Source of the DNA: an uncultured Chloroflexia bacterium
GTDB taxonomy: Bacteria > Chloroflexota > Anaerolineae > Promineifilales > UBA4811
DNA length: 64,000 nucleotides
Reading direction: 5' to 3'
NCBI GenBank assembly: GCA_963707345.1
Contig: CAVPPE010000001.1
Coordinates: 599,025 to 663,024, forward strand
Shown: in pieces, positions 3,255 through 60,461 of the stretch
Numbering within the stretch: the stretch's first letter is position 1
Layout: each line of letters opens with the position of its first letter
Translations under genes and position numbers: made by a program
The notes under the pieces: model-generated
What the model was told of the DNA's origin: nothing
What the model saw: the letters and a program-made list of their open reading frames with translations, nothing else
Databases searched by the model: none

Positions 3255-5420
3255 TCATTCCTCTTCCTGTGCAGCTAACGGGTCCTCGGCCGGTGCTTCC
3301 TTTGTCAACTTGGCGGCCGCCGGCGGGGTCAACTGGTCAGAGGTGCGCTGGCCAGGGTAGCGCGGCCGGGCGTGAAAGCGGCCCTGCAGCGAGTCTGCAA
3401 AGCTGTCTTTGATAGCTTGCAGGTCCCCCAGAGTCAGTCCCAACTCGTCCAGTTCACCCTCCAGCGCGATCTCGTTGACAATCTGGTCAACCAGCTTTTC
3501 AATTTCCTCTTCGGTGCGGCTTTGCATGGCCGTCGAGGCAGCCTCGCACGAGTTGGCCAGCAAAACGATGGCGGTCTCCTTGCTCTGCGGTTTAGGTCCT
3601 GGGTATTTAAAGTCCTCTTCTTTAACCAGGTTGGCGTCCTCGGCCGTCTTGAGTGCCTGATGGAAGAAAAACCGGATCGTGCGCGTGCCTTGGTGTTCGG
3701 GGATAAACGCCCGAATCCGATCCGGGATTTTGAACCGTCTGGCAAGGTCCAACCCATCCTGCACGTGACTGGCGATGGTCTGGGCGCTGGTGCGCGGGTC
3801 CAGCCGGGAATGGGCGTTGGCTCCGTCCTGATTCTCGGTGAAAAAATACGGCCGAGCGATTTTGCCCACGTCGTGGTAAAAGGAGCCGACCCGCACCAGG
3901 TCGGCGTCAGCGCTAATCCGGCGGGCGGCCTGCTCTGCCAGATTGGCGACCATCAGACTGTGGTGGTAGGTGCCGGGAGCCTGGCTCAGCAGTTCTTGCA
4001 GCAACGGATGGTCAAGCCGGGCCAACTCCTGCAGTTGCAGCGAGGTCAGGACGTTAAAGAGGTTGCCGATGACGAAAAAGCCAGTGAGCGTGATGCCGGC
4101 CGAAAAGAGGCCGTTCGCAAAGCTGACGCCGGTCAGTTGCAGGATGCCCAGCAGATCCGAGTCATTGAGGCGGTAAATGAGGATGACGCAGGTGTTGACA
4201 ACACCAACCAGGATGCCAACTCGGAAAAAGCTGCTCAGGCGGGGTGATTTACGCAGCACCAGCGCTGATAGGATGCCGGCCACGGCCGCATAGACCGTCA
4301 ATTCCAGCGAACTACCGGCGACAAATCCCACCAGCGCAGCCAGACAGACGGTGATAGCGATGGCCAGATTGGCGTCGAACAGGACTGTGATAAGCATGGC
4401 GAGCCCGGCCGAGGGAAAGAGAAACGGCAGCAATGCCCGGCCGGGAACCAGTAGCTTGGCGCCCAGCGAAAAAATCACCAGCAATAGCGAGATGAGTAGC
4501 ATGTGGCGGCCGCTGGCCAGGAAGTCCGGGTTGAACCGCTCGATATACAGCCCCAGCAAGGTTACAATTAGCACCACGGCGATAAAGTAGGTGATGCTGT
4601 CCTTCCAGTCCGTCTCGCTCTGCATCAATCCGAATTGCTGCATGGCCTCGATATCGGCCTCGTCGATGACCTCTTCTTGCCGCACGATGACCGAGTTGGG
4701 GTCGAACGATTGCTGGACCGACTCGACCGTGTCGGCTGCTTGCTGGCGGTACTGCTCTGTGAGCTGGGGGTTAAAGGTCGAATTGGGCACAATTAGTTGC
4801 TGTGCCAACGCCGTCACCACGGCCGCCTCGTTCTCGGCTAGTCCCAACGGAACCAGGAGCGGGATGGCAGCCTGGGCTTCTTCGATGCGGTCCTCTCGAA
4901 TCTGCTCTCGCATGGCTTCATCCACCACGTTTAGCGTTTCCTGGCGCACGGTTTCCCACTGGATTGTGGAAAGGTTGAGCAGCGTGTTTAGTGTTTGATC
5001 ATCCAGTTCCAGTTCCGGCACGGCGTTGATATAGTCTTTCTGGCGCTCCCGGCCGGCCAGCGTGTCCCCCCGCACCGTCTCGATAAAGTCAACAACGAGG
5101 CGCGCCTTGCTCACCTGGGATCGGGCGACGCGCATGTCGGGTGGGTTGTAGATATCCCGCACACTGGCAATAGCTTCCTGTTTCGCTTTTTCCGTCAGCA
5201 CCTGCGAGACATAGGTGATGCCGCGCGGGGCAAATACGTCCTCCGGAGCTGTGTCACCAACTTGCAGATCCAGTTGGGGTGCGGGCAGGATGTCAAAGGT
5301 GAGAATGAGGGTGAGCGATACCACCAGCAGCAGGCCGAACACGGCCGGCCGGACCTTGCCTAGCCAGCGAGTTGCTGGCGGCACAGGGCTATGTCGTGCT
5401 GGATGGGAAGGCGCTGCCAT
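3255..5420 (-). CDS. 7TM receptor with intracellular HD/HDIG phosphohydrolase domain (PgpH-like)
   Basis: 721 aa: N-terminal extracellular region, 7 TM helices, then an HD domain (YHHSLMVANLAE…FYHDVGKI). Sits directly upstream of ybeY, as in many bacteria. Confidence 0.88.
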   Translation of the reverse strand: MAAPSHPARHSPVPPATRWLGKVRPAVFGLLLVVSLTLILTFDILPAPQLDLQVGDTAPEDVFAPRGITYVSQVLTEKAKQEAIASVRDIYNPPDMRVARSQVSKARLVVDFIETVRGDTLAGRERQKDYINAVPELELDDQTLNTLLNLSTIQWETVRQETLNVVDEAMREQIREDRIEEAQAAIPLLVPLGLAENEAAVVTALAQQLIVPNSTFNPQLTEQYRQQAADTVESVQQSFDPNSVIVRQEEVIDEADIEAMQQFGLMQSETDWKDSITYFIAVVLIVTLLGLYIERFNPDFLASGRHMLLISLLLVIFSLGAKLLVPGRALLPFLFPSAGLAMLITVLFDANLAIAITVCLAALVGFVAGSSLELTVYAAVAGILSALVLRKSPRLSSFFRVGILVGVVNTCVILIYRLNDSDLLGILQLTGVSFANGLFSAGITLTGFFVIGNLFNVLTSLQLQELARLDHPLLQELLSQAPGTYHHSLMVANLAEQAARRISADADLVRVGSFYHDVGKIARPYFFTENQDGANAHSRLDPRTSAQTIASHVQDGLDLARRFKIPDRIRAFIPEHQGTRTIRFFFHQALKTAEDANLVKEEDFKYPGPKPQSKETAIVLLANSCEAASTAMQSRTEEEIEKLVDQIVNEIALEGELDELGLTLGDLQAIKDSFADSLQGRFHARPRYPGQRTSDQLTPPAAAKLTKEAPAEDPLAAQEEE

Positions 5421-6779: not shown

Positions 6780-8768
6780 CTAGCGCAAAAGGTGGAGCCA
6801 ATGGTCCACCAAGTCTGCTTCACTCAGATCTGATTCCAGCAACCATCCTAGCACAGAGGCGCAATCTTGGCAAAAACGATAGCTGTCGGCCGTGTCCACC
6901 TTTTGCTGCGGCGGCCAGCGGTGGTTTGCTTCTGCTCCGGCCGGGGCCAGCACCAGCACCGCGTCGTGCTTGAGCGAGCGCAGGTTGGCGATATGCACCG
7001 AGACCGGGTTTTCGGAGAGGACGACATACCGGTTGACCAGCCGGAACCCGGCCCGTTTGAGCGCCAGGGTAAGCGCGGCCCAGCCGAGTGGGTTCCAATG
7101 GTGATAGGTAAAGACCAGCCGGCCGTGTTCTTTTTTCAGCACCCGGCCGCATTCGGCCAGGATCTGGCTCAAGATGGCAGTGTACTGCCCCTCAGGCCCG
7201 CCGTTGGTGTGCGGGTCCACCGCCGACTGGCGCAGATCAATTGCCCAATCCGCTGCCTCCGGCAGCAGTCGCGCCAGCCAGACGTGAAAGAACTGGGCCA
7301 GGTCGCTGTATTGGACGCTGTCGTAATAGGGTGGATCGGTGACCACCGCGTCCACGCTGCTATCGTCCAGCGGGAGTTGGGCAGAAGAGCCCTGAATCAG
7401 AAAGAAGCGACGGGCTCCCTCGTTCAGGTCGGCCGGCGTGTGAACCTCGTGCCCCCAATCCACCTCACTCTCTATTGCGACCTTGCCCGGCCGGCCCTGG
7501 AGCTTGGGGCGCACGTCGCGTTCCACTGGCCGTTCGGCCCAGCGGCGGGCGCGGCGCACCCGGTCGTGGAACAGCTTTTCCAGCGTGCCGGAACTGCGCT
7601 GCGGATAGAGCGGGTTATTCTCCAGCGCGGTGTAGGGGAACGAGTAAGCGTGGTGGGCAAAGGTGTGGCGGATGGCCCCCGGCCGGCTCCGGCTGCCCCC
7701 CTTGTAGCCGCAGAGCAGCGCGTTGAACTCCAGCGAGGTCGAGATTAGCAACCCCAGGTTCAGGTGCACGGCCTCCAACTCCACGCCAGGGAGCAAGCGG
7801 ATGGCGTGCTGCAGATAGAGCAGTTGGCGGCTGGTGAAGAGGTCGAGGTAGGAGTGAATCCCGCGGCGCAGCAAGTCGGCCGATTTGGGGCCGGGCAGGA
7901 CGGCGAATTGTTCGGCCGGCAGGTCGGGTCGGGCGGCGTTCGCCTGCGCCAGCAAATCCAGGTCGGCCGGGGAGGGGGCCGCAAAGGTCACCCCATGCTC
8001 CGGGCAGGTGGCGACCACCGCCAGCGGCCGGTAGCGGGTATAATAGGGTTGGCGGGTGTCCTCCCGGTACCGCTGCCCACAGGTGGGACAGGTGCGGCGC
8101 TTGCGCTCAACGATGGGCGGCCGCGCATCCGCGCTGTCGCGGGGATGGGCCGGCGGGCACTGGCAGGCCGCATCACCGCGGACCACGGCGTGGCAGTGTG
8201 GGCACAGGCGCACGATGGTCCCATCCGACTCGTGACGCAGCGCCAGCGAATCCACCAGCACGGCCGGGCCACACCCGCAGCGCCGCTCCGCGCCATAGAG
8301 CACAAACTGCAATTCGACCGGCCGGGCGCAAGCCGGGCAGGCGGTGCGGAACAGCGGCGACAATTCCTCCCGCAACCGGCTCATCAGCCAGGTAAACGCG
8401 TTTTCCAGTTTCCCAAGTTCGATTCGGGTGAGTGAGGCGCGAGCTTGCAGTACCGGGATGGGGTCCAGGTCCGCCCCGATCACGTTCGCGCCCAGCCGGA
8501 CCGCCTCGTGCAGCGTCGTGCCGCCCCCCATCATCGGGTCCAGGATCAGCTTTCCATCCAGCCCTCCGGCCGCATAGTAATCCCGTTGCGCCGGATCGTC
8601 CGCCAGCCCCTTGAGGATCAGGCGAAAGGTGCTGCCGCAGCGCCGCGCCCACCACTTGTGCAGGTAGCTGTTCGGCCGATAGTGGTGCTTGTTGTAGCAT
8701 TCCAGCCGGGCCATCTCGTTGGCCTGCCCGGCCGGGAACTGGCTGTCAATGACCGGAGGCGAGGTCAT
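6780..8768 (-). CDS. Orphan DNA methyltransferase with inserted Zn-ribbon Cys clusters (COG1743/DUF1156-like, N6-adenine or N4-cytosine type)
   Basis: 662 aa. Contains the N-terminal HKWWARR motif, an AdoMet motif I (LDPMMGGGTT), several CxxC pairs (CPACARP, CGCGP, CPHCH, CQCP, CPTCG) and a C-terminal catalytic VVTDPPYYD. Its start overlaps the mtaB stop by 4 nt. Confidence 0.8.
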   Translation of the reverse strand: MTSPPVIDSQFPAGQANEMARLECYNKHHYRPNSYLHKWWARRCGSTFRLILKGLADDPAQRDYYAAGGLDGKLILDPMMGGGTTLHEAVRLGANVIGADLDPIPVLQARASLTRIELGKLENAFTWLMSRLREELSPLFRTACPACARPVELQFVLYGAERRCGCGPAVLVDSLALRHESDGTIVRLCPHCHAVVRGDAACQCPPAHPRDSADARPPIVERKRRTCPTCGQRYREDTRQPYYTRYRPLAVVATCPEHGVTFAAPSPADLDLLAQANAARPDLPAEQFAVLPGPKSADLLRRGIHSYLDLFTSRQLLYLQHAIRLLPGVELEAVHLNLGLLISTSLEFNALLCGYKGGSRSRPGAIRHTFAHHAYSFPYTALENNPLYPQRSSGTLEKLFHDRVRRARRWAERPVERDVRPKLQGRPGKVAIESEVDWGHEVHTPADLNEGARRFFLIQGSSAQLPLDDSSVDAVVTDPPYYDSVQYSDLAQFFHVWLARLLPEAADWAIDLRQSAVDPHTNGGPEGQYTAILSQILAECGRVLKKEHGRLVFTYHHWNPLGWAALTLALKRAGFRLVNRYVVLSENPVSVHIANLRSLKHDAVLVLAPAGAEANHRWPPQQKVDTADSYRFCQDCASVLGWLLESDLSEADLVDHWLHLLR

Positions 8769-48776: not shown

Positions 48777-49796
48777 TTAGCTTTTGGCGGGTGGTGCGGT
48801 TGTGTTCCGCACTACCAATTCGGTAGGCAGCACTTGGCATACGGGTTCCGATTGAGAATCCTCAAGTGCTTGCAGGAGCAGGTGCACGCCCCGTTCGCCT
48901 GATTCGTACAATAACTGCCGGATGGTCGTGAGGCCGAGGAATTCGGCCACTTCGATGTCGTCATATCCAATGATGGATAAATCCTGCGGAACCTGGAGGT
49001 TCAAGTCGCGTGCTGCCTCCACAACCCCCATTGCCTGGGTATCACTGGCGGCAAAAAACGCGGTCGGTGGCTCGGAAAGCTCCAGCAGTCCGCGAGCCAT
49101 CCAGCGCGCTTCTGCCCGGCCGTGCTGGACCAAGCGCAGATATTCGGGCCGCAACGGGATTCCGGCCGCTTCCAATGCCTGTCGATAGCCAAGCTGCCGG
49201 TCGGCACTGGAAGTAAAGTTGAATCCTTCGTTGGGAAGATCGCCGATGAAAGTGATGCGTCGGTGGCCCAACTCGATCAGGTATTCGGTGGCTTTCCGGC
49301 CGCCTTCCTTATCATCCACCAACACCCGGCTGAAGGATGCCAGGGCAGGGTGGTGGGCATCGACGAGGACAATCGGGACGGCCGAGGTTGACAATGTTTC
49401 GACGTCGTCATCGCGCGGGTTGAGTGCAAAGATGATCACGCCATCGACCCTCTCCCGGCGGGGCACATCGCGAAAACAGATGTCTCGCCGTTCCGGTGTT
49501 TCGACGTTGTAAATAATCAGGTCGTATTGGCTCTCGGTCAGCGCGTTTTCCACGCCGCGCAGCCGTTCCACAAACGACGGCCGGGTGAAAAAGGGAGTGA
49601 TGACACCAATGGTGAGGGTCTTTCCCAATGAGAGGCGGCGGGCAATTGGGCTGGGCGAAAAGTTCAACTCCTCGATGACTTCCAGGACGCGCAGACGCGT
49701 TGCTTCGCTGACAAGCGGGCTGTTGTTGAGCACTCGCGATACCGTGCCAAGGCCGACCCCGGCTTGTTGAGCCACATCTCGGATTGTCACGGCCAT
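48777..49796 (-). CDS. LacI-family transcriptional regulator
   Basis: Start at MAVTIRDVAQQAGVGLGTVSRVLNN (HTH), followed by a periplasmic-binding-protein-like sugar-binding core. 339 aa. The longer ORF-track N-terminus is rejected. Confidence 0.9.
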   Translation of the reverse strand: MAVTIRDVAQQAGVGLGTVSRVLNNSPLVSEATRLRVLEVIEELNFSPSPIARRLSLGKTLTIGVITPFFTRPSFVERLRGVENALTESQYDLIIYNVETPERRDICFRDVPRRERVDGVIIFALNPRDDDVETLSTSAVPIVLVDAHHPALASFSRVLVDDKEGGRKATEYLIELGHRRITFIGDLPNEGFNFTSSADRQLGYRQALEAAGIPLRPEYLRLVQHGRAEARWMARGLLELSEPPTAFFAASDTQAMGVVEAARDLNLQVPQDLSIIGYDDIEVAEFLGLTTIRQLLYESGERGVHLLLQALEDSQSEPVCQVLPTELVVRNTTAPPAKS

Positions 49797-49814
49797 CGAA
49801 TCCTCATCCTCACC

Positions 49815-49945: not shown

Positions 49946-52900
49946 GTGGATACGGCGATTCTGAGCAAGGTAATGTTGCCCCGGCCGCGGCGCTATTTGC
50001 TGGAGCGGCCGGCGCTGGCAGCGCAGTTGCTGGAGGCGCAGCACTACCGGCTGACCGTGGTGCAGGCCAGCACGGGGTATGGCAAGAGCACGGCGCTGGT
50101 CTCTGCATTGCAGCGGGCTCCCCTCGAGTTGTTCTGGTACAGTATCACCGAGCAGGATCGCGACCCGTTGGTCTTCTTGCTCTATTTGGTTCACGCTTTT
50201 CGCGTCAAGCATCCCAAATTTGGCTCAGGGGTCCTGCGTCAGATCCAGGATCCGGCTGCCGGTCAGCGCTCTCACCAGGCTATTGTGGAAACACTATCCA
50301 ATGAACTGGTGCGGCAGTTGGATCCCAACCGTCCGGCCATCCTGGTGCTGGACGATTATCACCTGGTCAATGCGTCAGTCGAGGTGGGGGCGCTGGTGGA
50401 CCATTTCCTGCAAGTATTGCCACCCAATACGCACCTGGTGCTGGCAACGCGCCAGCGGCCGGCGTTGCAGGGCATGCAGCAGTGGAAAGTCAAGGGAGAA
50501 CTGCTGGAGGTTAGCCAGCACGACCTGGCCTTTAGCCCCAGCGAGGTGGAGGCGCTGTTCCATCGCCAGTATGGTGTGACGCTGAGCGACCGGCAGGTGG
50601 CGCGGCTGGCGCAGGAAACTGAGGGCTGGGTCATTGCGTTGCAGATGATCTGGCAGGGTTTGCAGAGCGGCGTGGCCAGCAGCGTGGATCAAATCCTGGA
50701 CGAGATGGCCTGGTCTCTGAGTGATCTGTTTTCCTATCTGGCGCAGGAGGTGTTGGCGCGCCAGTCGCTGCAAGTCCAGGAATTCCTGTTGTATACCTCC
50801 GTGCTGCGTCAGTTGGATGGCCCGGTGTGCGATTTCCTGTTGGAGCAACAGGGGAGTGACGAGGTGCTGCGCCGTTTCGACGAGGAGGGCTTTTTTCTGG
50901 TGCGGGTAGGTGATGCCTACCGCTACCACCATCTGTTCCACGATTTTCTGCGCCAGCAGATGGCCCGGGATTCGGAGCGCACTCAGGTTTTGCACCGCCG
51001 GGCGGCCGGCTATTTCGGGCAGCAAAATGATGTAGAGGGGGCGGTGTACCATTGGCTGGCGGCCGCAACCAGCCATTTCCCGAGCGAGGTCGAGTACGAG
51101 GCGGCCGTCGAGCTGATGGTCCAGGTGAGCGAGGTGCTGGTGCAGCGCGGCCGGTTGGATACCATGAGCGAGTGGGTTACCGCGTTGCCGCTGCCGGTGC
51201 TCGGCCGGCAGCCCGTCCTGATGTACCGCATGGGGGAACTCTGCCGCTTTGCCAGCCGCTTTGACGAGGCGCTGGCCTGGTACGAACAGGCAAGAGAGCG
51301 TTACCTTGCCCTGCGCGACGTGGCCGGGGCAAGCCGGGCGCTGCGCGGGCAGGCGGCCGTTTACCTGGACACGGTCCGGCCGCTCAAAGCGGAAAGCCTA
51401 TTGCAAGAGGCGGTGATGCTGGTGGACGGCCAACCGGACCGCGAAGAGCAGGCCCGTCTGCTGGAGTTGATGGCCGAGAATATGACCAATCGCGGCAAGT
51501 GGGACAAGGCGGAGGAGCTCCTGCGACAGGCACGCGAGTTGCGCATCGAAGGGCCCAGCAAGGCTGATCTGGATGTGCGGGTGCTGTTGCGCACCGGCCG
51601 GCTGGACGAGGCCCGCGCTTTGTTAGAGGAGAGGGCCGCAGCCGAGCGGCGCGCCCAGCAGCCGGACAGTTTTCGTGCGCCGCGTGCCCACCGTGAGACG
51701 TTGTTGTTGCTCTCACTTCTCTATTCCTGGATGGGGCAGGCGGAGCAGGCGCTGGTCACCGCGCAGGAGGGAATTGCCGTCGGCCGGCGGCTGGGTTCGC
51801 CGTTTGTCGAAGCGGTGGGCTTTATGCGGCTGGGGCACGCCTGGCAAGTGACTGAGCGAGTGGAGCCGGCCGAGGCGTCAAGGCGGGCATTGGCTTGCTA
51901 TGAGCGGGCAATGGAGATCGGCGAGCGACTGGCGGTGCGGCGCACCAAGGCAGAAGCGCTGTGGGGCTTGTGCCGACTGCACGGCTACCGCGGGGAGCTG
52001 GCCGCGGCCGAGCGCAGCGCGCGCGAGGGAATTGAAACCGGACTGGGCGCGGGCGACGAGTGGATCGTCGCGCTCACCGGGGTGACGCTTGGAATCAGCT
52101 ATGTGATTGCCGGCCGGGACCCGGACGCGGATTATTGGCTCGATCTGTCTGCGATGGCATTCCAGGAATGTGGCGACCCGTTTGGCCAGGCGGTGGCGCG
52201 TCTCTGGCAATCTTACTCCTACCTGCGCCGCGAGTTGACGGGCCTGGGCTCCGCGTTGCAGGGGCTCTTTGCGTTGCTGAAGGAGCACAATTACCAGTTT
52301 CTCCTCAGCCAGCGGACCTTTCTGGGCCTGCCAGACCCGGCCGCCCAGGTGCCGCTGCTGATCCGGGCCCGGCAGAGTGGCATCTGGCCGGCTTTTGCGG
52401 GCCGGATGCTGGAGCAGACGGGTCTTCCGGCCGAGCTTTCGTTTCACCCCGGCTACACATTGCGGGTCCACGCGCTGGGCCGCTTTGCCGTCGGCCGGGG
52501 CGACGACCCGATCTCTGACGGTGAGTGGCGGCGCGAAAAGGCGCGTCAGTTGTTCCAGTTGCTTCTGCTCAGCCGGCACGAATCGTTCGTGCCACGGGAG
52601 CGGATTGCGGCCCAGCTCTGGCCGGAGGCGGATGAGGAGGCGGCCGAACGGCAGTTCAAGGTATCGCTCAACGCGCTGCAGCGAGCTTTGGAACCCGGCC
52701 GGCCGCCGCGCACGGCGACGCTGTTTGTCCAACGGCGGGGGAGCGCCTATGGCCTCAATCCGGACGCGCCGCTCTGGTTTGACGTGGACGTTTTTGAGCG
52801 GCTGGTTGCCCAGGCGGAGCAGGAGGCGGATGACGACACGGCTCTGGAAGCGTACCGGCAGGCATTGGCGCTGTACCACGGCGATCTGCTGCCCGATCAC

Positions 52901-53221
52901 CTGTACGAGGACTGGTGCCGGGAGGATCAGGAGCGGCTGCGACGCGTCTTTCTGAACGCCTCCACCCGGGCGGCCGAGATCCTGGCAGCTAGAGGCGGGC
53001 CGGAAGCGGCCGCCGAGGCAGTGGCGCTGTGTGAAAGGATGCTGGCGGCCGACAACTGTTGGGAAGCCGCCTACCAGTTGCTGATGCGAATCTACCTGGG
53101 GCAGGAAAACCGGGTCAAGGCACTGCGCACCTACGAGCGGTGCGTGAGCTGTCTGCGCGAAGAGTTGGACGTTGAGCCTGCGCCAGAAACCGTTGCCCTG
53201 TATCGGCAGATGCAGCAATGA
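49946..53221 (+). CDS. Large STAND/MalT-like P-loop ATPase with TPR-like repeats and a C-terminal SARP module (OmpR-type wHTH + BTAD)
   Basis: Walker A (VVQASTGYGKSTALV), a long helical-repeat middle region, and a C-terminal LRVHALGRFAV…REKARQLFQLLLL…ERIAAQLWPE… wHTH followed by a BTAD (…ALEAYRQALALYHGDLLPD…YQLLMRIYLGQENRVKALRTYERC…LDVEPAPET). The start is GTG 49946 or ATG 49973. Confidence 0.8.
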   Translation: MDTAILSKVMLPRPRRYLLERPALAAQLLEAQHYRLTVVQASTGYGKSTALVSALQRAPLELFWYSITEQDRDPLVFLLYLVHAFRVKHPKFGSGVLRQIQDPAAGQRSHQAIVETLSNELVRQLDPNRPAILVLDDYHLVNASVEVGALVDHFLQVLPPNTHLVLATRQRPALQGMQQWKVKGELLEVSQHDLAFSPSEVEALFHRQYGVTLSDRQVARLAQETEGWVIALQMIWQGLQSGVASSVDQILDEMAWSLSDLFSYLAQEVLARQSLQVQEFLLYTSVLRQLDGPVCDFLLEQQGSDEVLRRFDEEGFFLVRVGDAYRYHHLFHDFLRQQMARDSERTQVLHRRAAGYFGQQNDVEGAVYHWLAAATSHFPSEVEYEAAVELMVQVSEVLVQRGRLDTMSEWVTALPLPVLGRQPVLMYRMGELCRFASRFDEALAWYEQARERYLALRDVAGASRALRGQAAVYLDTVRPLKAESLLQEAVMLVDGQPDREEQARLLELMAENMTNRGKWDKAEELLRQARELRIEGPSKADLDVRVLLRTGRLDEARALLEERAAAERRAQQPDSFRAPRAHRETLLLLSLLYSWMGQAEQALVTAQEGIAVGRRLGSPFVEAVGFMRLGHAWQVTERVEPAEASRRALACYERAMEIGERLAVRRTKAEALWGLCRLHGYRGELAAAERSAREGIETGLGAGDEWIVALTGVTLGISYVIAGRDPDADYWLDLSAMAFQECGDPFGQAVARLWQSYSYLRRELTGLGSALQGLFALLKEHNYQFLLSQRTFLGLPDPAAQVPLLIRARQSGIWPAFAGRMLEQTGLPAELSFHPGYTLRVHALGRFAVGRGDDPISDGEWRREKARQLFQLLLLSRHESFVPRERIAAQLWPEADEEAAERQFKVSLNALQRALEPGRPPRTATLFVQRRGSAYGLNPDAPLWFDVDVFERLVAQAEQEADDDTALEAYRQALALYHGDLLPDHLYEDWCREDQERLRRVFLNASTRAAEILAARGGPEAAAEAVALCERMLAADNCWEAAYQLLMRIYLGQENRVKALRTYERCVSCLREELDVEPAPETVALYRQMQQ

Positions 53222-53227
53222 CCTCGC

Positions 53228-53260
53228 CTGTAACTTCCCTGTAACTTGGCTGAAACTCGA
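53228..53260 (+). promoter_or_regulatory. Three direct repeats with 11-bp periodicity (CTGTAACTTCC / CTGTAACTTGG / CTGAAACTCGA), a candidate SARP binding site
   Basis: Repeat 1 is 53228-53238, repeat 2 is 53239-53249 and repeat 3 is 53250-53260. The first 9 nt are identical in repeats 1 and 2 and match 7/9 in repeat 3. The -10 box begins 6 nt after repeat 3. Confidence 0.6.
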
Positions 53261-53263
53261 GTT

Positions 53264-53272
53264 TGATACAAT
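53264..53272 (+). promoter_or_regulatory. Extended -10 box (TGATACAAT) of the phasin/phaC promoter; no -35 hexamer
   Basis: A TGnTAnAAT match. The -35 position is occupied by repeat 3. Confidence 0.5.
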
Positions 53273-53278
53273 GACCAT

Positions 53279-53318
53279 GCAGCGGCTGGCCCCGCGCTGG
53301 CCACTGCGTTGTATTTTT
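53279..53318 (+). terminator. GC-rich imperfect hairpin plus T-tract: terminator of the regulator gene and/or a leader attenuator of the phasin mRNA
   Basis: GCAGCGGCTGG-(7 nt)-CTGGCCACTGC followed by GTTGTATTTTTAT. It lies downstream of the candidate promoter and upstream of the AGGAGG RBS. Confidence 0.45.
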
Positions 53319-53363
53319 ATCTGCTGAGCAATTCGGCTCAACAAGTTTAGGAGGACCAAGACA

Positions 53364-53636
53364 ATGATGCCCGATGATTTCTTCAAAAAGAACCTGGATA
53401 TGTGGGAAAAGTTTACCACCAGCTATATGGACAACATGTTCAAAGTGGTGGAAAAGACGATGGAGCAATCCCAGGCGTTCAAGGATCGAATGGACAAGGC
53501 GGTAGCTGATGCTGTCTCCAACCAGGTTGAGGGGACGATGGATGCGACCATGTCGTCCATGCAGGCGCTGCAACGTCAGATAGAGGCGTTGTCGGCCAAA
53601 GTGGACCAATTGATGAAGCAAAAAGAAACCAAGTAG
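53364..53636 (+). CDS. Phasin-like / PHA-granule-associated small coiled-coil protein
   Basis: 90 aa, Met/Lys/Glu-rich and helical (…NLDMWEKFTTSYMDNMFKVVEKTMEQSQAF…). AGGAGG RBS. Lies immediately upstream of phaC. Confidence 0.6.
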   Translation: MMPDDFFKKNLDMWEKFTTSYMDNMFKVVEKTMEQSQAFKDRMDKAVADAVSNQVEGTMDATMSSMQALQRQIEALSAKVDQLMKQKETK

Positions 53637-53685: not shown

Positions 53686-55365
53686 GTGCATCGACCAGTG
53701 ACCGATTCAACCGCTACATTCTCTTGGGAACACATGTTCAGGCTGGCTACCGGTACGGCAGCCAGCCTGTGGCGCTTGCAGCAGGCCAATCTGACGGCCG
53801 CCACCCGCAGTGTGGAGCTAATGGCGGATACCTACGCCCGGCTGTGGGGCCTACCGGCCGGGGAGGAGGTGCTGCCGGCCGATAGGCGATTTGCGGACGC
53901 GGCCTGGCAGGAGAACGTGGCCTTTGACGTTCTCAAGCAGACCTATCTCATCACCACTCAATGGATGGTAGAGGTGGCTGATGGGTTGGAAGAGGTGCAT
54001 CCCGCGGTTCATCAGCGGGCGGTGTTTTGGGCCAGGCAGGCGGCCGATGCGCTCAGCCCGACCAATATTGCGCTGACCAACCCGGTTGTGCTGCAGGAGA
54101 TCGTCCGCACCGGCGGTATGAACCTGGTCCACGGAATGCAGAATCTGCTCTCCGACCTGGAAAAGGGGCGCATCAGCCAGGTGCAGGAGGGAGCTTTCGA
54201 GGTCGGCAAGAATCTGGCGATGACGCCGGGCAAGGTGGTTTTCCGCAGCCCGTTGATCGAGCTGATTCAGTACACGCCGGCAACCAAAAAGGTTCGCGCC
54301 GTCCCAATCCTGGTGGTCCCCCCATGGATCAACAAGTATTACGTGATGGATATGCGGCCGGAAAACTCGCTGTTCAAATATCTGGTGGACGCCGGTTTCA
54401 CTGTCTTTGCCATCAGCTGGAAGAATCCGGACGAATCGATCCTCGATCTGGAGTGGGCAGACTATATGCTGCGCGGTCCGGTGACGGCCATGCAGGTAGT
54501 CAAATCCATCACCGGCTCCGAGCAGGTGAACATGGTGGGCTACTGTTTGGGTGGGATCATGGTCCAGTTCACGCTGGCCTATCTGGCTGCGGCCGGCGAA
54601 GAAGCGCTGGCCGAATTCGACCTGCCGGCGGTCAGCGCGGCGACCTGCTTTACCACCCACCAGGATTTTTCCAATGTGGGCGATATTGCAGCGTTCCTCA
54701 GCGAGCCGGAGGTCAAGTTTCTGGAGTGGCTGATGAAGGTCAGCGGCGGGTACCTGGACGGCCGGAACATGGCGTCCACGTTTAACATGCTGCGCTCCAA
54801 TGACCTGCTATGGCATTACGTGATTGAGAACTATTTGATGGGGCGAGAGCCGCCGGCCTTTGACCTGCTGTACTGGAATGGCGACGGGACGCGGGTCCCC
54901 GGCCGGGTGCATTCGTTCTTGCTGCGCGAGTTCTTTTTGAAGAACAAACTGAAGGAGCCCGGCGGCATCCAGGTGAATGGGGTTGGGATTGACGTGGGCA
55001 AGGTCAACGTGCCAACCTACTGTGTGGCGGCCAGCGGCGACCATATCGTTCCTTGGCAGGGTGCCTTTACCATGCGCCAGTTGCAGGGCGGGCCGGTCCG
55101 CTTTATTCTGACCGGTGGTGGGCACATTGCCGGCATCATCAACCCGCCGGGCAAGAAGGGGCGCAGCTATTGGACGAACGACGACAAAACGACCGATGCG
55201 GAAGCCTGGTTGGCAGGGGCAACCAGCCACGAAGGTAGCTGGTGGTCGGATTGGGTTCCGTGGTTGAAAAAGCGGTCTGGTAACCTGATAGCACCACCGC
55301 CGGCCGGCAATGATGCGTACCCGTCTTTGCTGGACGCACCGGGGAGTTACGTGCTGGAAAAGTGA
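53686..55365 (+). CDS. phaC: Poly(3-hydroxyalkanoate) synthase, class I-type PhaC
   Basis: 559 aa with …PILVVPPWINKYYVMDMRPENS…, the lipase box GYCLGG and a conserved C-terminal His/Asp region. Confidence 0.9.
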   Translation: MHRPVTDSTATFSWEHMFRLATGTAASLWRLQQANLTAATRSVELMADTYARLWGLPAGEEVLPADRRFADAAWQENVAFDVLKQTYLITTQWMVEVADGLEEVHPAVHQRAVFWARQAADALSPTNIALTNPVVLQEIVRTGGMNLVHGMQNLLSDLEKGRISQVQEGAFEVGKNLAMTPGKVVFRSPLIELIQYTPATKKVRAVPILVVPPWINKYYVMDMRPENSLFKYLVDAGFTVFAISWKNPDESILDLEWADYMLRGPVTAMQVVKSITGSEQVNMVGYCLGGIMVQFTLAYLAAAGEEALAEFDLPAVSAATCFTTHQDFSNVGDIAAFLSEPEVKFLEWLMKVSGGYLDGRNMASTFNMLRSNDLLWHYVIENYLMGREPPAFDLLYWNGDGTRVPGRVHSFLLREFFLKNKLKEPGGIQVNGVGIDVGKVNVPTYCVAASGDHIVPWQGAFTMRQLQGGPVRFILTGGGHIAGIINPPGKKGRSYWTNDDKTTDAEAWLAGATSHEGSWWSDWVPWLKKRSGNLIAPPPAGNDAYPSLLDAPGSYVLEK

Positions 55366-55387
55366 GCTAGTGGACTAGGAGAAACCA

Positions 55388-55732
55388 ATGAGCCAAGAGC
55401 AATCTGGCAAGCCAGAGGGCGACCCATTTGAGCCGGTTATTCAATTCTATGACAGTTGGACCAAGTCGTGGTCCAACGCGATGAGCGAGATGGTGGCCAG
55501 CAAGAGCTTTGCCGATTCCATGAGCCAACAGATGGAAGGCAGCATGGAGGCGCTGGCGATGGTTCGGAAGCAGGTGAGTGACCTGATGGAGCAATACCTG
55601 CAACAGATGAGCTTGCCCACTCGCAAGGAGGTTATTGGATTGGCGGAACGGATGACCCGCATTGAGATGCTGGTAGATGATCTGGACGCCAAGCTGGACA
55701 AAATCCTGGACCTGCTGCAAGCACAAGGGTGA
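55388..55732 (+). CDS. PhaR/PhaE-like small partner subunit of class III/IV PHA synthase
   Basis: 114 aa. The N-terminal half is paralogous to the 90-aa protein (DSWTKSWSNAMSEMV…). The C-terminal part (LPTRKEVIGLAERMTRIEMLVDDLDAKLDKI) resembles the PhaR/PhaE C-terminus. The stop overlaps the next start (GTGA). Confidence 0.55.
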   Translation: MSQEQSGKPEGDPFEPVIQFYDSWTKSWSNAMSEMVASKSFADSMSQQMEGSMEALAMVRKQVSDLMEQYLQQMSLPTRKEVIGLAERMTRIEMLVDDLDAKLDKILDLLQAQG

Positions 55733-56887
55733 TTTCACCCATCATGGATGACCTCTATACCCCGCCCTGGGGTGACCTGTTCTTTTCAATCGAGGGCGCT
55801 GCCCAGGATTCAAGCGCGGCCGCTCAGCGCGCCTATAGCCGTTACGTCCAGGGAGTCAAAGCCATTGTCGATTCACACGATGTGCCGGTCGGGCTGACTC
55901 CCAAGGACGAGGTCTGGGCATTGAACAAGACCCGCTTGTACCGCTACCGGCCCGTGCGGCCGCCGGAGGAGCGCTACCCCATTCCCTTGCTGCTGGTCTA
56001 TGCGCTCATCAATCGGCCGTTTATCTACGACTTGGGTCCCGGGCCGGAGCTTTGTGGAGTATATGCTGGAGCAGGGGTTCGACGTCTACCTGCTGGACTG
56101 GGGGACGCCGGCACCGGAAGACCGGAACACCACTTTCGACGACTATGTCACCGAGTACCTGCGCCGCGCTGTGCGCCGCGTGCTTCGCACTTCTGGCGCA
56201 GACCAGGTGAGCATGCTGGGGTATTGCATTGGGGCGACGCTGACGGTGTTGTATGCCGCCTATTACCCCGATGCGCCGGTTCGCAACATCATCCTGCTGA
56301 CCGCGCCGATTGACTTTTCGCACCGGCCGGAAGGCTCGATGGCGATGTGGCTGGAAGAAGGGCGGCTGGACGTGGACAAGCTGATAGACTCCTTTGGCAA
56401 CGTCCCCGGCGAGCTGATCCGGCATTGGGCTAAAATGCTCAAGCCGATGGAAAACTTTGTCGGCGCCTACGTCAACTTGTGGAAGCAACTGGAGGACGAG
56501 ACGGCCGTGCGCGGCTGGCAGGCCATCAACCGCTGGGTTGAGGACGTCATCCCCTTTGCCGGCGAGGCGTTCCGCCAATTTGTGCACGACTATGTTCGCA
56601 ACAATGAACTGATCAGGGGGGAGCATTTTATTCACGGGCGGCGCGTAGATTTGTCCAACATCCGTGCCGCGTTACTCAACCTGGTGGCGCAATACGACCA
56701 CCTCGTTTCTCAAGCCCAATCTGAGAGCGTCATGGACCTCATCTCCAGCACCGACAAGGAATTGCGGGTCATTCCATCCACCCACGTAGGGATTATGGCC
56801 AGCAGCCGAGCCAAGTACAAACTTTGGCCGGAGGTGGCCGAGTGGTTGTCAGAGCGCTCCAGCAAGGTCGTTGCCCGGCCGGAATAA
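55729..56887 (+). CDS. phaC: Poly(3-hydroxyalkanoate) synthase, class III/IV-type PhaC, with an apparent +1 frameshift at the GGG run 56033-56035
   Basis: ORFs 55729..56313 and 56000..56887 join as …LVYALINRPFIYDL|VPGRSFVEYMLEQGFDVYLLDWG…. Lipase box GYCIGA. Span length is 3n+1. Confidence 0.85.
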
Positions 56888-56903
56888 ACCCAAGGAGCCA
56901 TTG

Positions 56904-57932
56904 ATGGCAAATCCTTCAACCGTATCGGCGGGCATTGTGAGTACCGGGATGTATTTGCCGGAACCGGTGCTGACGGCGGCCGATATTGCCCGCGAAAGCG
57001 GCCTGCCCGAATGGGTGGTGCGCGAAAAGTTGGGCATCGAGCAGAAACACATGGCTGGCCCGGATGACCATCCTAACCAGATGGCTGTTTGGGCGGCGCA
57101 GGACTGCCTGTCCAAGACCGATATCTCCCCGGAGGAGATCGACGTGATCCTTTGCACCACCGAAGAGTGGCGCGAATACTTGTTGTGGACCACCGCCATC
57201 CACCTGGCCAACGAAATTGGTGCCACGCGTGCCTGGGGAATTGACATCCACATGCGGTGCTGCACCACGGTTGCCGCGCTCAAGATGGCCAAGGACATGA
57301 TGATTGCCGATCCGGAGATCAACACGGTGTTGATTGCCGGTGGCTACCGGATTGGCGACGTGATTGACCTCAGCAATCAGCGCACAAGCTTTCTCTTCAA
57401 CATTGGCGCGGGAGCAGGGGCGCTGTTGCTGCGCAAGAATTGGCCGCGCAACCACGTCCTGGGGGCCCACTTGATCACCGATGGCTCGATGAGCAAGCAC
57501 GTGGTGGTGCCGGCCAGCGGTACGGTTCAGTTCCCGACCGATGAGGCCGTGGCGCAAGGTCTGTTCAAGTTTGACCTGGTGGAGCCGGAGGCGATGAAGT
57601 CGCGCCTCAACGAGGTATCGATGGACAACTGGATGGCCTGCATCGATCTGGCTCTGCAAAAAAGCGGCTACACGCGAGCTGATCTGGGCTTTCTCAACAT
57701 GGTGCTCATCAAGCCGTCTGGCTACCGGGATATGCTGCAGCGATTGGGCCTGACTGAAGAGCAGGGGGTGTACAACGCCAGCTATGGTCACATCGGGGAA
57801 CAGGACAGCATCATCAACCTTATCGAAGGTGAAAAGCAGGGGCGGCTGAAAGACGGCGATCTGATGGCAATTGTGGGGGCCGGGATTGGATATGTTTGGG
57901 GGGCGACGGTGGTCAAGTGGGGGCCATGCTGA
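56904..57932 (+). CDS. KAS-III (FabH)-like thiolase-superfamily condensing enzyme, atypical
   Basis: Starts at MANPSTV with an AAGGAG RBS. FabH-like N-terminal half with an active-site Cys context (DIHMRCCTTVAALK). I cannot see the canonical HQAN and GNT motifs in the C-terminal half. Confidence 0.7.
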   Translation: MANPSTVSAGIVSTGMYLPEPVLTAADIARESGLPEWVVREKLGIEQKHMAGPDDHPNQMAVWAAQDCLSKTDISPEEIDVILCTTEEWREYLLWTTAIHLANEIGATRAWGIDIHMRCCTTVAALKMAKDMMIADPEINTVLIAGGYRIGDVIDLSNQRTSFLFNIGAGAGALLLRKNWPRNHVLGAHLITDGSMSKHVVVPASGTVQFPTDEAVAQGLFKFDLVEPEAMKSRLNEVSMDNWMACIDLALQKSGYTRADLGFLNMVLIKPSGYRDMLQRLGLTEEQGVYNASYGHIGEQDSIINLIEGEKQGRLKDGDLMAIVGAGIGYVWGATVVKWGPC

Positions 57933-57968
57933 GCGAACGGAAGACGAATGACAATGGACCAATGGTGA

Positions 57969-58791
<823 letters not shown>

Positions 58792-58817
58792 TTGCGGGTC
58801 GGTGTAGGAGGAGATGG

Positions 58818-60461
58818 ATGGATCCGGGTGAGCTGTACAAACAGAAGCTGCTTTCCATCCCGGAAGCCGTGTCGCTGGTCCAGTCGCATCAGACCATCGG
58901 CGTGGCGCTGGCTGCCTCGGAACCGCCCGGTCTGTTGAGCGAGCTGGGGAATCACAAGGACCGCCTGGAAGATGTGACGGTCTGGGTGGCTTTGCCCCTG
59001 CGGCGCTACGATTTTGTCTACGATCCCCAGATGGCGGGCCACTTTTTTGTGGAGAACTGGTTCTACGGCGCTCCCGATCGGGCGGTGCACCCCCAGGGCC
59101 GCATCTCCTATATCCCCAATAATCTGCACGCGGCCGCCAAGGTCAAGCTGGCGGCCGTAGGCAACCATCTGGACATCTACTGGGGCACGGCCACCCCACC
59201 GGACAGGCGCGGCTTTATGTCGCTGTCGGTTGGGCTGATCTATGAAAAGATGCTCATCGAAGCGGCCGACCTGGTGGTGCTGGAGTTGAACGAGAACACC
59301 CCCTGGACGCTGGGTGACACCCAGATCCACATCTCGGACGTGGATTACGTGGTCGAGAACCACGTGCCGATGTTCGAGTTGCCGGTCACAGCGCCCAGCG
59401 ACTGGGAGCAATCTATCGGCGGCTACATCGCCGAGCTGATCGAGGATGGAGCCACGATTCAGTTGGGCATCGGCGGCATCCCCAACGCCATCACCGCCTA
59501 TCTGCTGGAGCGGCGCGACCTGGGTGTGCACACCGAGATGTTCACCGACGGGATGGTCGATCTCTACGAGGCGGGGGTCGTCACTGGCAAGCGCAAAACG
59601 CTGTGGCAGGGCAAGATGGTCGGCGGCTTTGCCCTTGGTACGCGAAAGCTCTACGATTTTGTCGACGACAACCTGGCGGTTGAGTTCCAGCAGGGCAAAG
59701 TCACCAACGATCCGTATGTCATTGGCAAAAACTACAAAATGGTGAGCGTCAACACCGCACTGCAGGTGGACCTGTACGGACAGGTGTGCTCGCAAAGCCT
59801 GGGGCCGCGCCACTTTAGCGGCACGGGCGGCCAGCTCGACACCCACCGCGGCGCGCAGCTCTCGCCCGGCGGCCGGGGCATCATCGCCCTGCACTCGGTG
59901 GCCAGGGACGGCGAAATCTCAACGGTGGTACCGATGTTGAACGAGGGGGCGCAAGTCACGGTCGCCAGCCAGGACGTGGATACCGTGGTCAGCGAGTACG
60001 GCGTGGCCGAGCTGAAAGGGCGCTGCATCAAGGACCGGACCGAGGCTCTGATCCGGATCGCGCATCCCGACTTTCGCCCCTGGCTGCGCGAGGAGGCCGA
60101 GCGACTCCAGATCGTGCCCCGCCTGGTGGTGCCCGGTTTTGAGTCTGGAAGAGCCCGTCGCGCCGCGCCAGCGCACCTGGCGTCACGGCCGATACGATCC
60201 GGTTGGGTACCTTCTGCGACCTCTCCGGCCCCAACGCCGCCCTTGGCCTGGCGGCGTTGCGCGGCTATTCCGCCTGCTATGAGCATGCCAACCGCTGGGG
60301 CGGCGTCCACGGGCGAAAGATCGAACTGCTCGTCGAGGACGATGGCTTTGACCCCACCCGCACCCGGCCGGCCGTCATTAAGCTGGTCGAGCAGGATGAG
60401 GTATTTGCCATCGTCAGTCCGTTGGGTACCATCACCAACATGGCGGTGCTCGATTACCTGA
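58818..60461 (+). CDS. Acetyl-CoA hydrolase/transferase family enzyme (4-hydroxybutyrate CoA-transferase-like); the natural stop appears to be missing
   Basis: The homologous region MDPGELYKQKLLS…GIGGIPNA…GTGGQLD…IRIAHPDFRPWLREEAERLQI ends at about 60140. The ORF then reads on for about 105 low-complexity codons, out of frame over the next gene, to 60461. Confidence 0.8.
   Translation: MDPGELYKQKLLSIPEAVSLVQSHQTIGVALAASEPPGLLSELGNHKDRLEDVTVWVALPLRRYDFVYDPQMAGHFFVENWFYGAPDRAVHPQGRISYIPNNLHAAAKVKLAAVGNHLDIYWGTATPPDRRGFMSLSVGLIYEKMLIEAADLVVLELNENTPWTLGDTQIHISDVDYVVENHVPMFELPVTAPSDWEQSIGGYIAELIEDGATIQLGIGGIPNAITAYLLERRDLGVHTEMFTDGMVDLYEAGVVTGKRKTLWQGKMVGGFALGTRKLYDFVDDNLAVEFQQGKVTNDPYVIGKNYKMVSVNTALQVDLYGQVCSQSLGPRHFSGTGGQLDTHRGAQLSPGGRGIIALHSVARDGEISTVVPMLNEGAQVTVASQDVDTVVSEYGVAELKGRCIKDRTEALIRIAHPDFRPWLREEAERLQIVPRLVVPGFESGRARRAAPAHLASRPIRSGWVPSATSPAPTPPLAWRRCAAIPPAMSMPTAGAASTGERSNCSSRTMALTPPAPGRPSLSWSSRMRYLPSSVRWVPSPTWRCSIT

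Follow-up and report, generated by a model that had tools for sequence, protein, structure and literature searches.

A probable SARP-type promoter between a STAND-SARP regulator gene and a PHA operon in Chloroflexota

The short region which separates a STAND-SARP regulator gene from a phasin/PhaC operon probably contains the promoter of this operon: an extended -10 promoter without a -35 hexamer, whose upstream half is a SARP box. We show its sequence elements, which recur at constant spacing in about 45 related loci and are linked both to the 3' end of the regulator gene and to operons of PHA type; we also show that the regulator C-terminus has a SARP fold. Binding, activation, the start site and the signal are inferred. 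There are no binding, expression or start-site data for this promoter model, and its functional statements are inferred from sequence.

Repeats and -10 box

The window, the whole 64-kb stretch of DNA that was analyzed, contains the following features around the site, all of them on the forward strand:

49946-53221 (+): regulator gene, 1091 aa, with a MalT-like STAND ATPase (NOD), a TPR/superhelical sensor and a C-terminal SARP domain
52460-53215 (+): C-terminal SARP domain, formed by an OmpR-type winged helix (residues ~839-945) and a BTAD (~946-1090)
53228-53238 (+): distal direct repeat CTGTAACTTCC, at about -51..-41
53239-53249 (+): middle direct repeat CTGTAACTTGG, at about -40..-30
53250-53260 (+): proximal direct repeat CTGAAACTCGA, at about -29..-19
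53264-53272 (+): extended -10 TGATACAAT (TGaTACAAT), with TG at 53264-65 and TACAAT at 53267-72
53279-53281 (+): predicted transcription start, 7-9 nt past the -10, inferred and not mapped
53277-53321 (+): hairpin (53277-53309) and U-rich tract UUGUAUUUUUAU up to 53321, probable regulator terminator
53350-53636 (+): AGGAGG ribosome-binding site (53350) and 90-aa phasin-like gene (ATG 53364)
53686-60461 (+): rest of the presumed operon, with class I PhaC, PhaE/PhaR-like, class III PhaC-like, KAS III-like, FabG/PhaB-like SDR and CoA-transferase genes

The three repeats at 53228-53260 have a period of exactly 11 nt, according to both a repeat search and inspection. The distal repeat begins 7 nt after the regulator stop codon, a TGA at 53219-53221. 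The proximal repeat is followed by gtt and then by the extended -10 TGATACAAT; the 11-nt repeat ends 6 bp before TACAAT, and its heptamer GAAACTC lies 8 bp from it. The promoter scan of this site gave no -35 hexamer at a spacing of 16-18 nt from the -10. The sole TTGACA-like hexamer nearby is TTGGCT (53246-51), with a 15 nt spacer. If transcription starts at 53279, as we have assumed, the middle and proximal repeats cover -40..-19 and the distal one -51..-41. The choice of repeat register is free within 1-2 bp, and the position of the start rests on prediction, not on mapping; purines are enriched at the predicted start columns across related sites. The phasin-like ATG (53364) is found 92 nt after the end of the -10. 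No alternative promoter was detected between 53273 and 53363, either by promoter scan or by inspection.

SARP targets are direct repeats 11 or 22 bp apart, whose 3' repeat lies 8 bp from the -10. The afs box recognized by AfsR spans -40 to -19, over a poor -35, and two SARP protomers placed side by side provide a docking surface for sigma region 4 (PMC10936776, PMC11301090). Sites with three repeats are also known, for DnrI, ActII-ORF4 and others. The window site has the sequence features of a SARP box: 11-bp phasing, a 3' repeat about 8 bp from the -10 and over the -35, and a weak or absent -35.

What the original prediction, made from the sequence alone, had claimed for this site is upheld wherever computation can check it. 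It had described three repeats of 11-nt period at 53228-53260, 7 nt past the stop codon, with an extended -10 and no -35, which sequence inspection and the repeat search confirm. It had also recognized a SARP-type geometry (11 bp, about 8 bp from the -10, over the -35), which agrees with PMC10936776 and PMC11301090. The presence of a SARP-domain regulator upstream also held, as shown by Pfam, by profile matches to AfsR and EmbR and by superposition of an AlphaFold model (see below). Placing the site about 100 nt upstream of the phasin ATG requires a small correction, to the 92 nt given above.

The site is unique in the window. The pattern TGWAACT-N4-TGWAACT occurs once in 64 kb, precisely at this position (0.34 expected). 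A weight matrix built from the other loci only gives it 38.8 bits, and the runner-up on either strand has 1.7 bits. A perfect 12-bp palindrome, AAACTCGAGTTT, is found at 53253-53264, where it shares bases with the proximal repeat and with the extended -10 TG. We have considered it as a dimer site and rejected it: it is not kept in the closest relatives (L084, L086, L088 and L089), and we treat it as due to chance. The TGAAAC form of the proximal repeat is common to these four loci and L005.

Conservation of the site in related loci

We have compared 89 loci with homologous regulators (35-67% identity). Genome and metagenome contig scans with the regulator gave 83 of them, and exact-protein look-ups of closer homologues the other 6. 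All loci were sampled through the regulator, so the links of the motif with the regulator and with the operon are not fully separable. According to the source names, the family belongs to Chloroflexota/Anaerolineae, the closest members being MAGs.

Our strict scan required two cores with at most one mismatch to TGTAAC, 11 nt apart, followed after exactly 10 nt by TAnnnT. About 0.8 Mb of loci contained 45 such sites on the regulator strand and none on the opposite strand; the mean in a Markov simulation was 0.1. All 45 have TAnnnT exactly 10 nt past the proximal TGTAAC core. Strict sites are present in 40 of the 69 loci with a complete regulator 3' end, and 36 of these 40 are at most 160 nt from the stop codon. 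The scan did not require the TG of an extended -10, which is conserved all the same (T in 35 and G in 40 of the 45 sites). This conservation independently supports TAnnnT as a real -10. Given the 45 sites against none, the simulated 0.1 and the conservation of a TG that was not imposed, it is very likely that the site is not due to chance.

A weight-matrix scan added L005, L045, L046, L064, L071, L088 and L089. With relaxed scoring and three further loci, 47 of the 89 loci carry two or three repeats, a 10-nt gap and TAnnnT just past the regulator stop. They correspond to 43 non-redundant regulator clusters. Among these, a third repeat is found in 24 and TG at -15/-14 in 33. The stop codon precedes the proximal core by a median of 43 nt, and 8 clusters use the TAA of a TGTAAC repeat as the regulator stop codon. 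The operator consensus may be written as ([C/T]TGTAAC[C/T][C/G]C)x2-3, N, TGnTAnnnT. The family matrix shows no conservation of a TTGACA-like -35, and the -10 hexamers are often poor, for example TACCCT, TATCTT and TAGTCT.

Individual loci illustrate this design. L001 (44% identity) has TTGTAACTCCT, CTGTAACTGCC and TCGTAACTCCC in succession, then ctctgc and TACAAT, and L002 (42% identity) has the same arrangement. In L089 (67% identity), where a phasin is also the first gene, TTGTAACTCCT, GTGTAACTCCC and CTGAAACCGAA are followed by ttctgc and TATAAT; equivalent sites are present in L084, L085, L086 and L088. L086 and L089 are syntenic with the window and retain the repeats, the 10-nt gap and the -10. 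When nine phasin-first loci are aligned, intergenic conservation is limited to the repeats, the -10 and the ribosome-binding site with the ATG.

About one third of the homologous regulators (24 loci, including L003 and L087) have no adjacent site. L003 and L087 (63-64% identity) present neither a TGTAAC site nor PHA genes nearby. Before their regulators lie VIT1 and an OmpR-type response regulator, and after them the same protein of about 300 aa without Pfam matches. Another particular case is L079, with three TGTAAC-repeat sites at positions 61, 663 and 1563 (-), whose gap to TATGAT/TATAAT is 9 nt, not 10. They lie on the strand opposite a partial regulator gene, and two of them, separated by about 600 nt, have the same sequence.

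The regulator protein

A database protein, P0001, is 100% identical to the regulator, has 1091 aa and fixes its GTG start. The gene probably extends from 49946 to 53221, a length equal to that of P0001.

The N-terminal part corresponds to MalT. About 520 residues match NF003420 (MalT) with E 3e-67, and both the Walker A (GYGKST) and Walker B (LVLDD) motifs are invariant. A MalT-type STAND protein is expected to have a NOD with Walker A/B motifs, a winged-helix domain and a superhelical sensor; the regulator presents this layout, with the winged helix supported by PF25873 (WHD_MalT). The AlphaFold model of the full-length protein has a mean pLDDT of 91.4, and the best PDB match of its N-terminus in Foldseek is MalT (8bob_C, TM 0.81, target-normalised).

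The C-terminal part is a SARP domain. Pfam detects BTAD (E 3e-25), Trans_reg_C (E 1e-3) and TPR. A search of the C-terminal domain against PDB with phmmer, using a single sequence, gave no match, and a profile was needed. The profile of the last 273 residues, made from 46 homologues, matches the entire SARP domain of AfsR (8hvr_I, residues 45-284) with E 1.7e-16 and EmbR with E 3.5e-7. The profile of the DNA-binding part matches the winged helices of both AfsR and PhoB. In the model, the C-terminus folds as strand-helix-helix-helix-wing, then helices, and superposes on EmbR over 263 columns with an rmsd of 3.2 A. An OmpR-type winged helix directly followed by a BTAD is the defining arrangement of a SARP domain, and it is found here. 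The placement is not the canonical one, N-terminal and in Actinobacteria: the domain occupies residues ~839-1090 of 1091, in Chloroflexota. Pfam searches gave no LuxR/GerE match in the C-terminus, and a domain search found no receiver domain in the linked regulator.

The regulator is thus a MalT-type STAND sensor with a SARP domain in place of the LuxR output, the SARP fold being established by profile matches and a predicted model. Public databases label such proteins "MalT/DNA-binding SARP", so the domain fusion is already visible in annotation. A LacI-family regulator gene at 48777-49800 (-) diverges from the STAND-SARP gene. In its ORF call, about 100 codons precede the LacI domain, and the ORF overlaps the 5' region of the STAND-SARP gene.

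Linkage of the site to neighboring genes

The presence of the site is strongly associated with PHA-type genes within 3 kb downstream. Both are found in 41 loci, only the site in 6, only PHA genes in 1 and neither in 24 (Fisher p=1.6e-12). The six loci with a site and no detected PHA genes mostly have short flanks. The genes which follow the site are the same in shuffled order: a 254-aa SDR, KAS III, an AMP-ligase or CoA-transferase, alpha/beta-hydrolases or PhaC, a PhaE-like and a phasin-like protein. The first gene may be an SDR, KAS III, a phasin, a hydrolase or, in L052, an ABC transporter of the Liv type, which belongs to a non-PHA operon.

Our main argument that the adjacent regulator reads the repeats is that regulator and site form a constant unit, followed by a variable first target gene. 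That the regulator directly activates the PHA operon through the repeats, as originally proposed, is supported by co-conservation only; binding, activation and the start site remain inferred. The proposal would have been refuted if the repeats were missing from orthologous loci which keep the regulator and the PHA genes. We have found the opposite: they are conserved in 47 loci, including the syntenic L086 and L089, and the other intergenic DNA is not.

A different reader should be considered. The repeats might be a site similar to a pho box, recognized by a separate response regulator of the OmpR/PhoB family (responding, for example, to nutrient limitation) and not by the adjacent STAND-SARP protein. 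The pho box of E. coli, CTGTCAT-N4-CTGTCAT, lies 10 bp from the -10 and replaces the -35. This geometry fits equally well, so geometry alone does not identify the reader. The profile of the DNA-binding domain matches PhoB about as well as AfsR, PHA synthesis is commonly induced by nutrient limitation, and the way our loci were chosen, through the regulator, limits the separation of the two links. On the other hand, the site stays with the regulator 3' end while gene order in the operon shifts, and it overlaps the stop codon in 8 clusters. In L052 it precedes an operon unrelated to PHA, and there is no second copy in the 64-kb window. Two residues of the recognition helix, R69 and D70, hardly vary among regulators which have a site (31/34 and 30/34), but do so among regulators which lack one (8/17 and 7/17); this evidence is weak and confounded by phylogeny. 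A trans-acting response regulator cannot be excluded by geometry; we consider it unlikely, given the linkage in cis.

Some loci have additional sites away from the regulator 3' end. L052 contains extra TGTAAC sites at 8272 and 3329; one is found before a Peripla_BP_6 ABC transporter and another upstream of the AMP-ligase gene which precedes the regulator. In L044, a divergent pair at 3647(-)/3679(+) separates a KAS III gene from a hydrolase gene. These extra sites hint at small regulons.

We have also observed a conserved ORF of about 65-75 aa right after the regulator in several loci: L008 (4768-5085), L010 (5615-5809), L022 (4457-4744), L069 (8336-8551), and also L012, L024 and L061. It has the motif VVSFVLRFV(Y/F)D..GW(R/H)GLIRHVQS..E.HF..W.DA..FI.QYV and no Pfam match. 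It has its own TGTAAC-repeat promoter, which overlaps the regulator stop codon, and is followed by a second TGTAAC promoter and then by an SDR/AMP-ligase/hydrolase/KAS III operon.

The downstream operon

The first gene of the window operon is only weakly related to Phasin PF05597 (E 1e-3, under the Pfam cut-off). In L017, L019, L020, L025, L029, L036, L086 and L089, a homologue of it comes first after the site. The class I PhaC matches TIGR01838 with 643 bits.

Two genes of the operon appear to be split. The class III PhaC-like gene (55729-56887) extends over two frames: when compared with its 371-aa homologue from L086, residues 13-95 are found in one frame and 53-359 in another. In the FabG/PhaB-like SDR gene (58032-58791), residues 1-68 of the L001 homologue correspond to one frame and 64-254 to another, with the junction at about 58216-58229. 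The splits point to assembly indels or to decay of the operon.

Hairpin and terminator

A hairpin followed by a T-tract had been predicted at 53279-53318; our coordinates are 53277-53309 for the hairpin, with the tract reaching 53321. The hairpin has a dG of -21.8 kcal/mol, which is unremarkable when compared with shuffled sequences (z -1.2). It was not called by a terminator scan, and its U-tract is interrupted. An RNA starting at 53279 retains most of the hairpin (-19.1 kcal/mol), and one starting at 53281 has -13.6 kcal/mol, no better than shuffles (z 0). Read-through RNA folds further, by base pairing between the -10 region GAUACAAUGAC and the U-tract, to a dG of -32.5 kcal/mol (z -2.95).

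Related loci often show a similar arrangement. The spacer/-10 region pairs with the sequence just past the -10, so that the -10 lies in the loop or in the 5' arm of a hairpin, with a T-run after it. Examples are L001, L002, L013, L025, L026, L028, L030, L047, L068 and L069. A search for perfect stems under-called these hairpins, because the stems ran into the U-tract, and permutation and head-swap tests were used instead. In the permutation test, 8 sites have at least 7 consecutive Watson-Crick pairs between the spacer/-10 and the sequence after the -10, compared with 1.3 expected. The gain in leader folding is -9.5 kcal/mol with the cognate promoter core and -6.3 kcal/mol with swapped cores (Wilcoxon p=8e-5). 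We have interpreted the energies of read-through and promoter RNAs only in this controlled comparison.

We have rejected a leader RNA: the Rfam search of 53100-53500 gave no match at E<=1, and the leader, including the hairpin sequence, is not conserved among the nine phasin-first loci.

The original prediction had noted that the hairpin would have to be a leader attenuator, or else that the repeats would sit within the regulator 3' UTR. This complication is partly resolved: a regulator terminator which overlaps the promoter is the most likely answer. We infer that hairpin and U-tract are probably the terminator of the regulator, which is interleaved with the promoter and shares sequence with the beginning of the operon transcript. 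Their effect on transcripts from the promoter is unresolved. RNA initiated at the promoter would lack part of the 5' arm, and in the window its escape from termination would be partial at best. Attenuation, or a stabilizing 5' stem-loop, are also possible roles for the window hairpin.

A more radical alternative is that there is no promoter here. The repeats and the -10-like box would be part of the regulator 3' UTR or terminator, or a chance repeat, and the operon would be transcribed by read-through or from another promoter. The position of the site, 7 nt past the stop codon, the hairpin and U-tract which follow it, and the pairing of the -10 region with the U-tract in read-through RNA fit this view. 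Against it, what is conserved in 43 non-redundant loci is DNA sequence, with constant 11-nt phasing and an equally constant gap of 10 nt before TGnTAnnnT, without any covarying RNA structure. The excess of sites over the simulation and the lack of both an Rfam match and an alternative promoter also speak against it. We consider this explanation very unlikely and keep the reading of the site as a promoter.

Proposed mechanism

By analogy with MalT and AfsR, the STAND-SARP regulator would be activated by an unknown ligand and ATP. Its SARP domains would then bind side by side to the three TGTAAC/TGAAAC repeats, on one face of the helix, and take the place of the missing -35 contact of sigma region 4. 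RNA polymerase would thus be recruited to TGnTACAAT by "sigma adaptation", as solved for AfsR.

The same regulator might act in the opposite direction, by repressing or blocking an extended -10 promoter which is itself constitutive. Promoters of this type can work without a -35, and a site at -51..-19 is typical of repressors (PMC11301090). On the other hand, all characterized SARP-domain proteins which bind at exactly this position are activators, the BTAD is conserved, and the frequently poor -10 hexamers of the family fit dependence on an activator. Repression appears unlikely, and activation is the reading we prefer. Several points stand against the promoter model as a whole. The extended -10 may fire without an activator, in which case a protein at -19..-51 could repress it. 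A nearly complete hairpin with its U-tract just past the predicted start could terminate or attenuate transcripts from the promoter. Two genes of the operon are apparently frameshifted in the window.

A bolder reading goes further: these loci would represent an undescribed cassette, present throughout Chloroflexota. A MalT-type STAND sensor with a C-terminal SARP output would switch on PHA genes by sigma adaptation, at a -35-less TGTAAC-repeat promoter located behind its own stop codon or overlapping it. In many members, the promoter core would be nested in the terminator hairpin of the regulator: read-through RNA would terminate, and RNA initiated by the activator, without the 5' arm, would escape. 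This is a joint claim, which in our opinion is slightly more likely to fail than to hold. If true, it would be the first defined SARP regulon outside Actinobacteria, and PHA genes would have a master regulator of a new kind. Interleaved promoter and terminator elements, if real, would provide compact insulation of the regulator gene from its target.

The operator consensus offers a testable handle on PHA regulation in a phylum which is abundant and poorly cultured, and which inhabits wastewater, sediments and hot springs. The STAND-SARP protein and its promoter are also a ready-made sensor-promoter pair for engineering. Full-text literature searches yielded nothing published on SARP regulators of Chloroflexi, nor on control of PHA genes by SARP/BTAD proteins, and a 2024 review considers SARPs exclusive to actinobacteria. 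In the literature searched, we have not found any publication on the STAND-SARP operator, on its constant location after the gene or on an association with PHA clusters.

Comparison with known systems

Known PHA regulators, of the PhaR/PhaF/PhaD/PhaQ type, also control phasin and PHA-synthase genes. Nevertheless, they are unrelated proteins (granule-binding repressors, TetR-type and others) with unrelated operators.

The pho box bound by PhoB is similar in its 7+4 direct repeats, which stand in for the -35 and are equally distant from the -10, and PhoB has a related winged helix. However, PhoB belongs to a two-component system, as a response regulator which has a receiver domain and lacks a BTAD, and no gene of this kind is linked to the sites described here.

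MalT of E. coli has a homologous N-terminal region of about 520 residues. Both proteins have multiple tandem sites, and both presumably share an oligomerisation switch driven by ligand and ATP. The difference lies in the output: MalT ends in a LuxR-type helix-turn-helix and its MalT boxes are upstream of a promoter which also lacks a -35, whereas the window regulator has a SARP domain.

DnrI, ActII-ORF4 and FdmR1 recognize three direct repeats with 11-nt phasing beside the -10, and are encoded next to the genes they control, as we infer for the window. They are small, N-terminal SARPs from actinomycete antibiotic clusters, while the window protein is a STAND fusion of 1091 aa, associated with primary carbon storage.

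The closest parallel is AfsR with the afs box of the afsS promoter in Streptomyces coelicolor (cryo-EM structures 8HVR, 8K60 and 8JKE). In both cases, 11-bp repeats are found at -40..-19, over a poor or absent -35. Both proteins have an OmpR-type winged helix with a BTAD, with one repeat for each protomer, and both include a STAND NOD and TPR. There are also clear differences. The order of the domains is reversed in the window protein, with the SARP domain at the C-terminus, behind a NOD of MalT type. The window site has three TGTAAC repeats, not two, and belongs to a different phylum, Chloroflexota. Its putative target is not afsS, but a PHA storage operon directly downstream in cis. A SARP module and a promoter geometry which are textbook features of actinomycete antibiotic clusters are found here in Chloroflexota, where we infer that they are wired to PHA genes.
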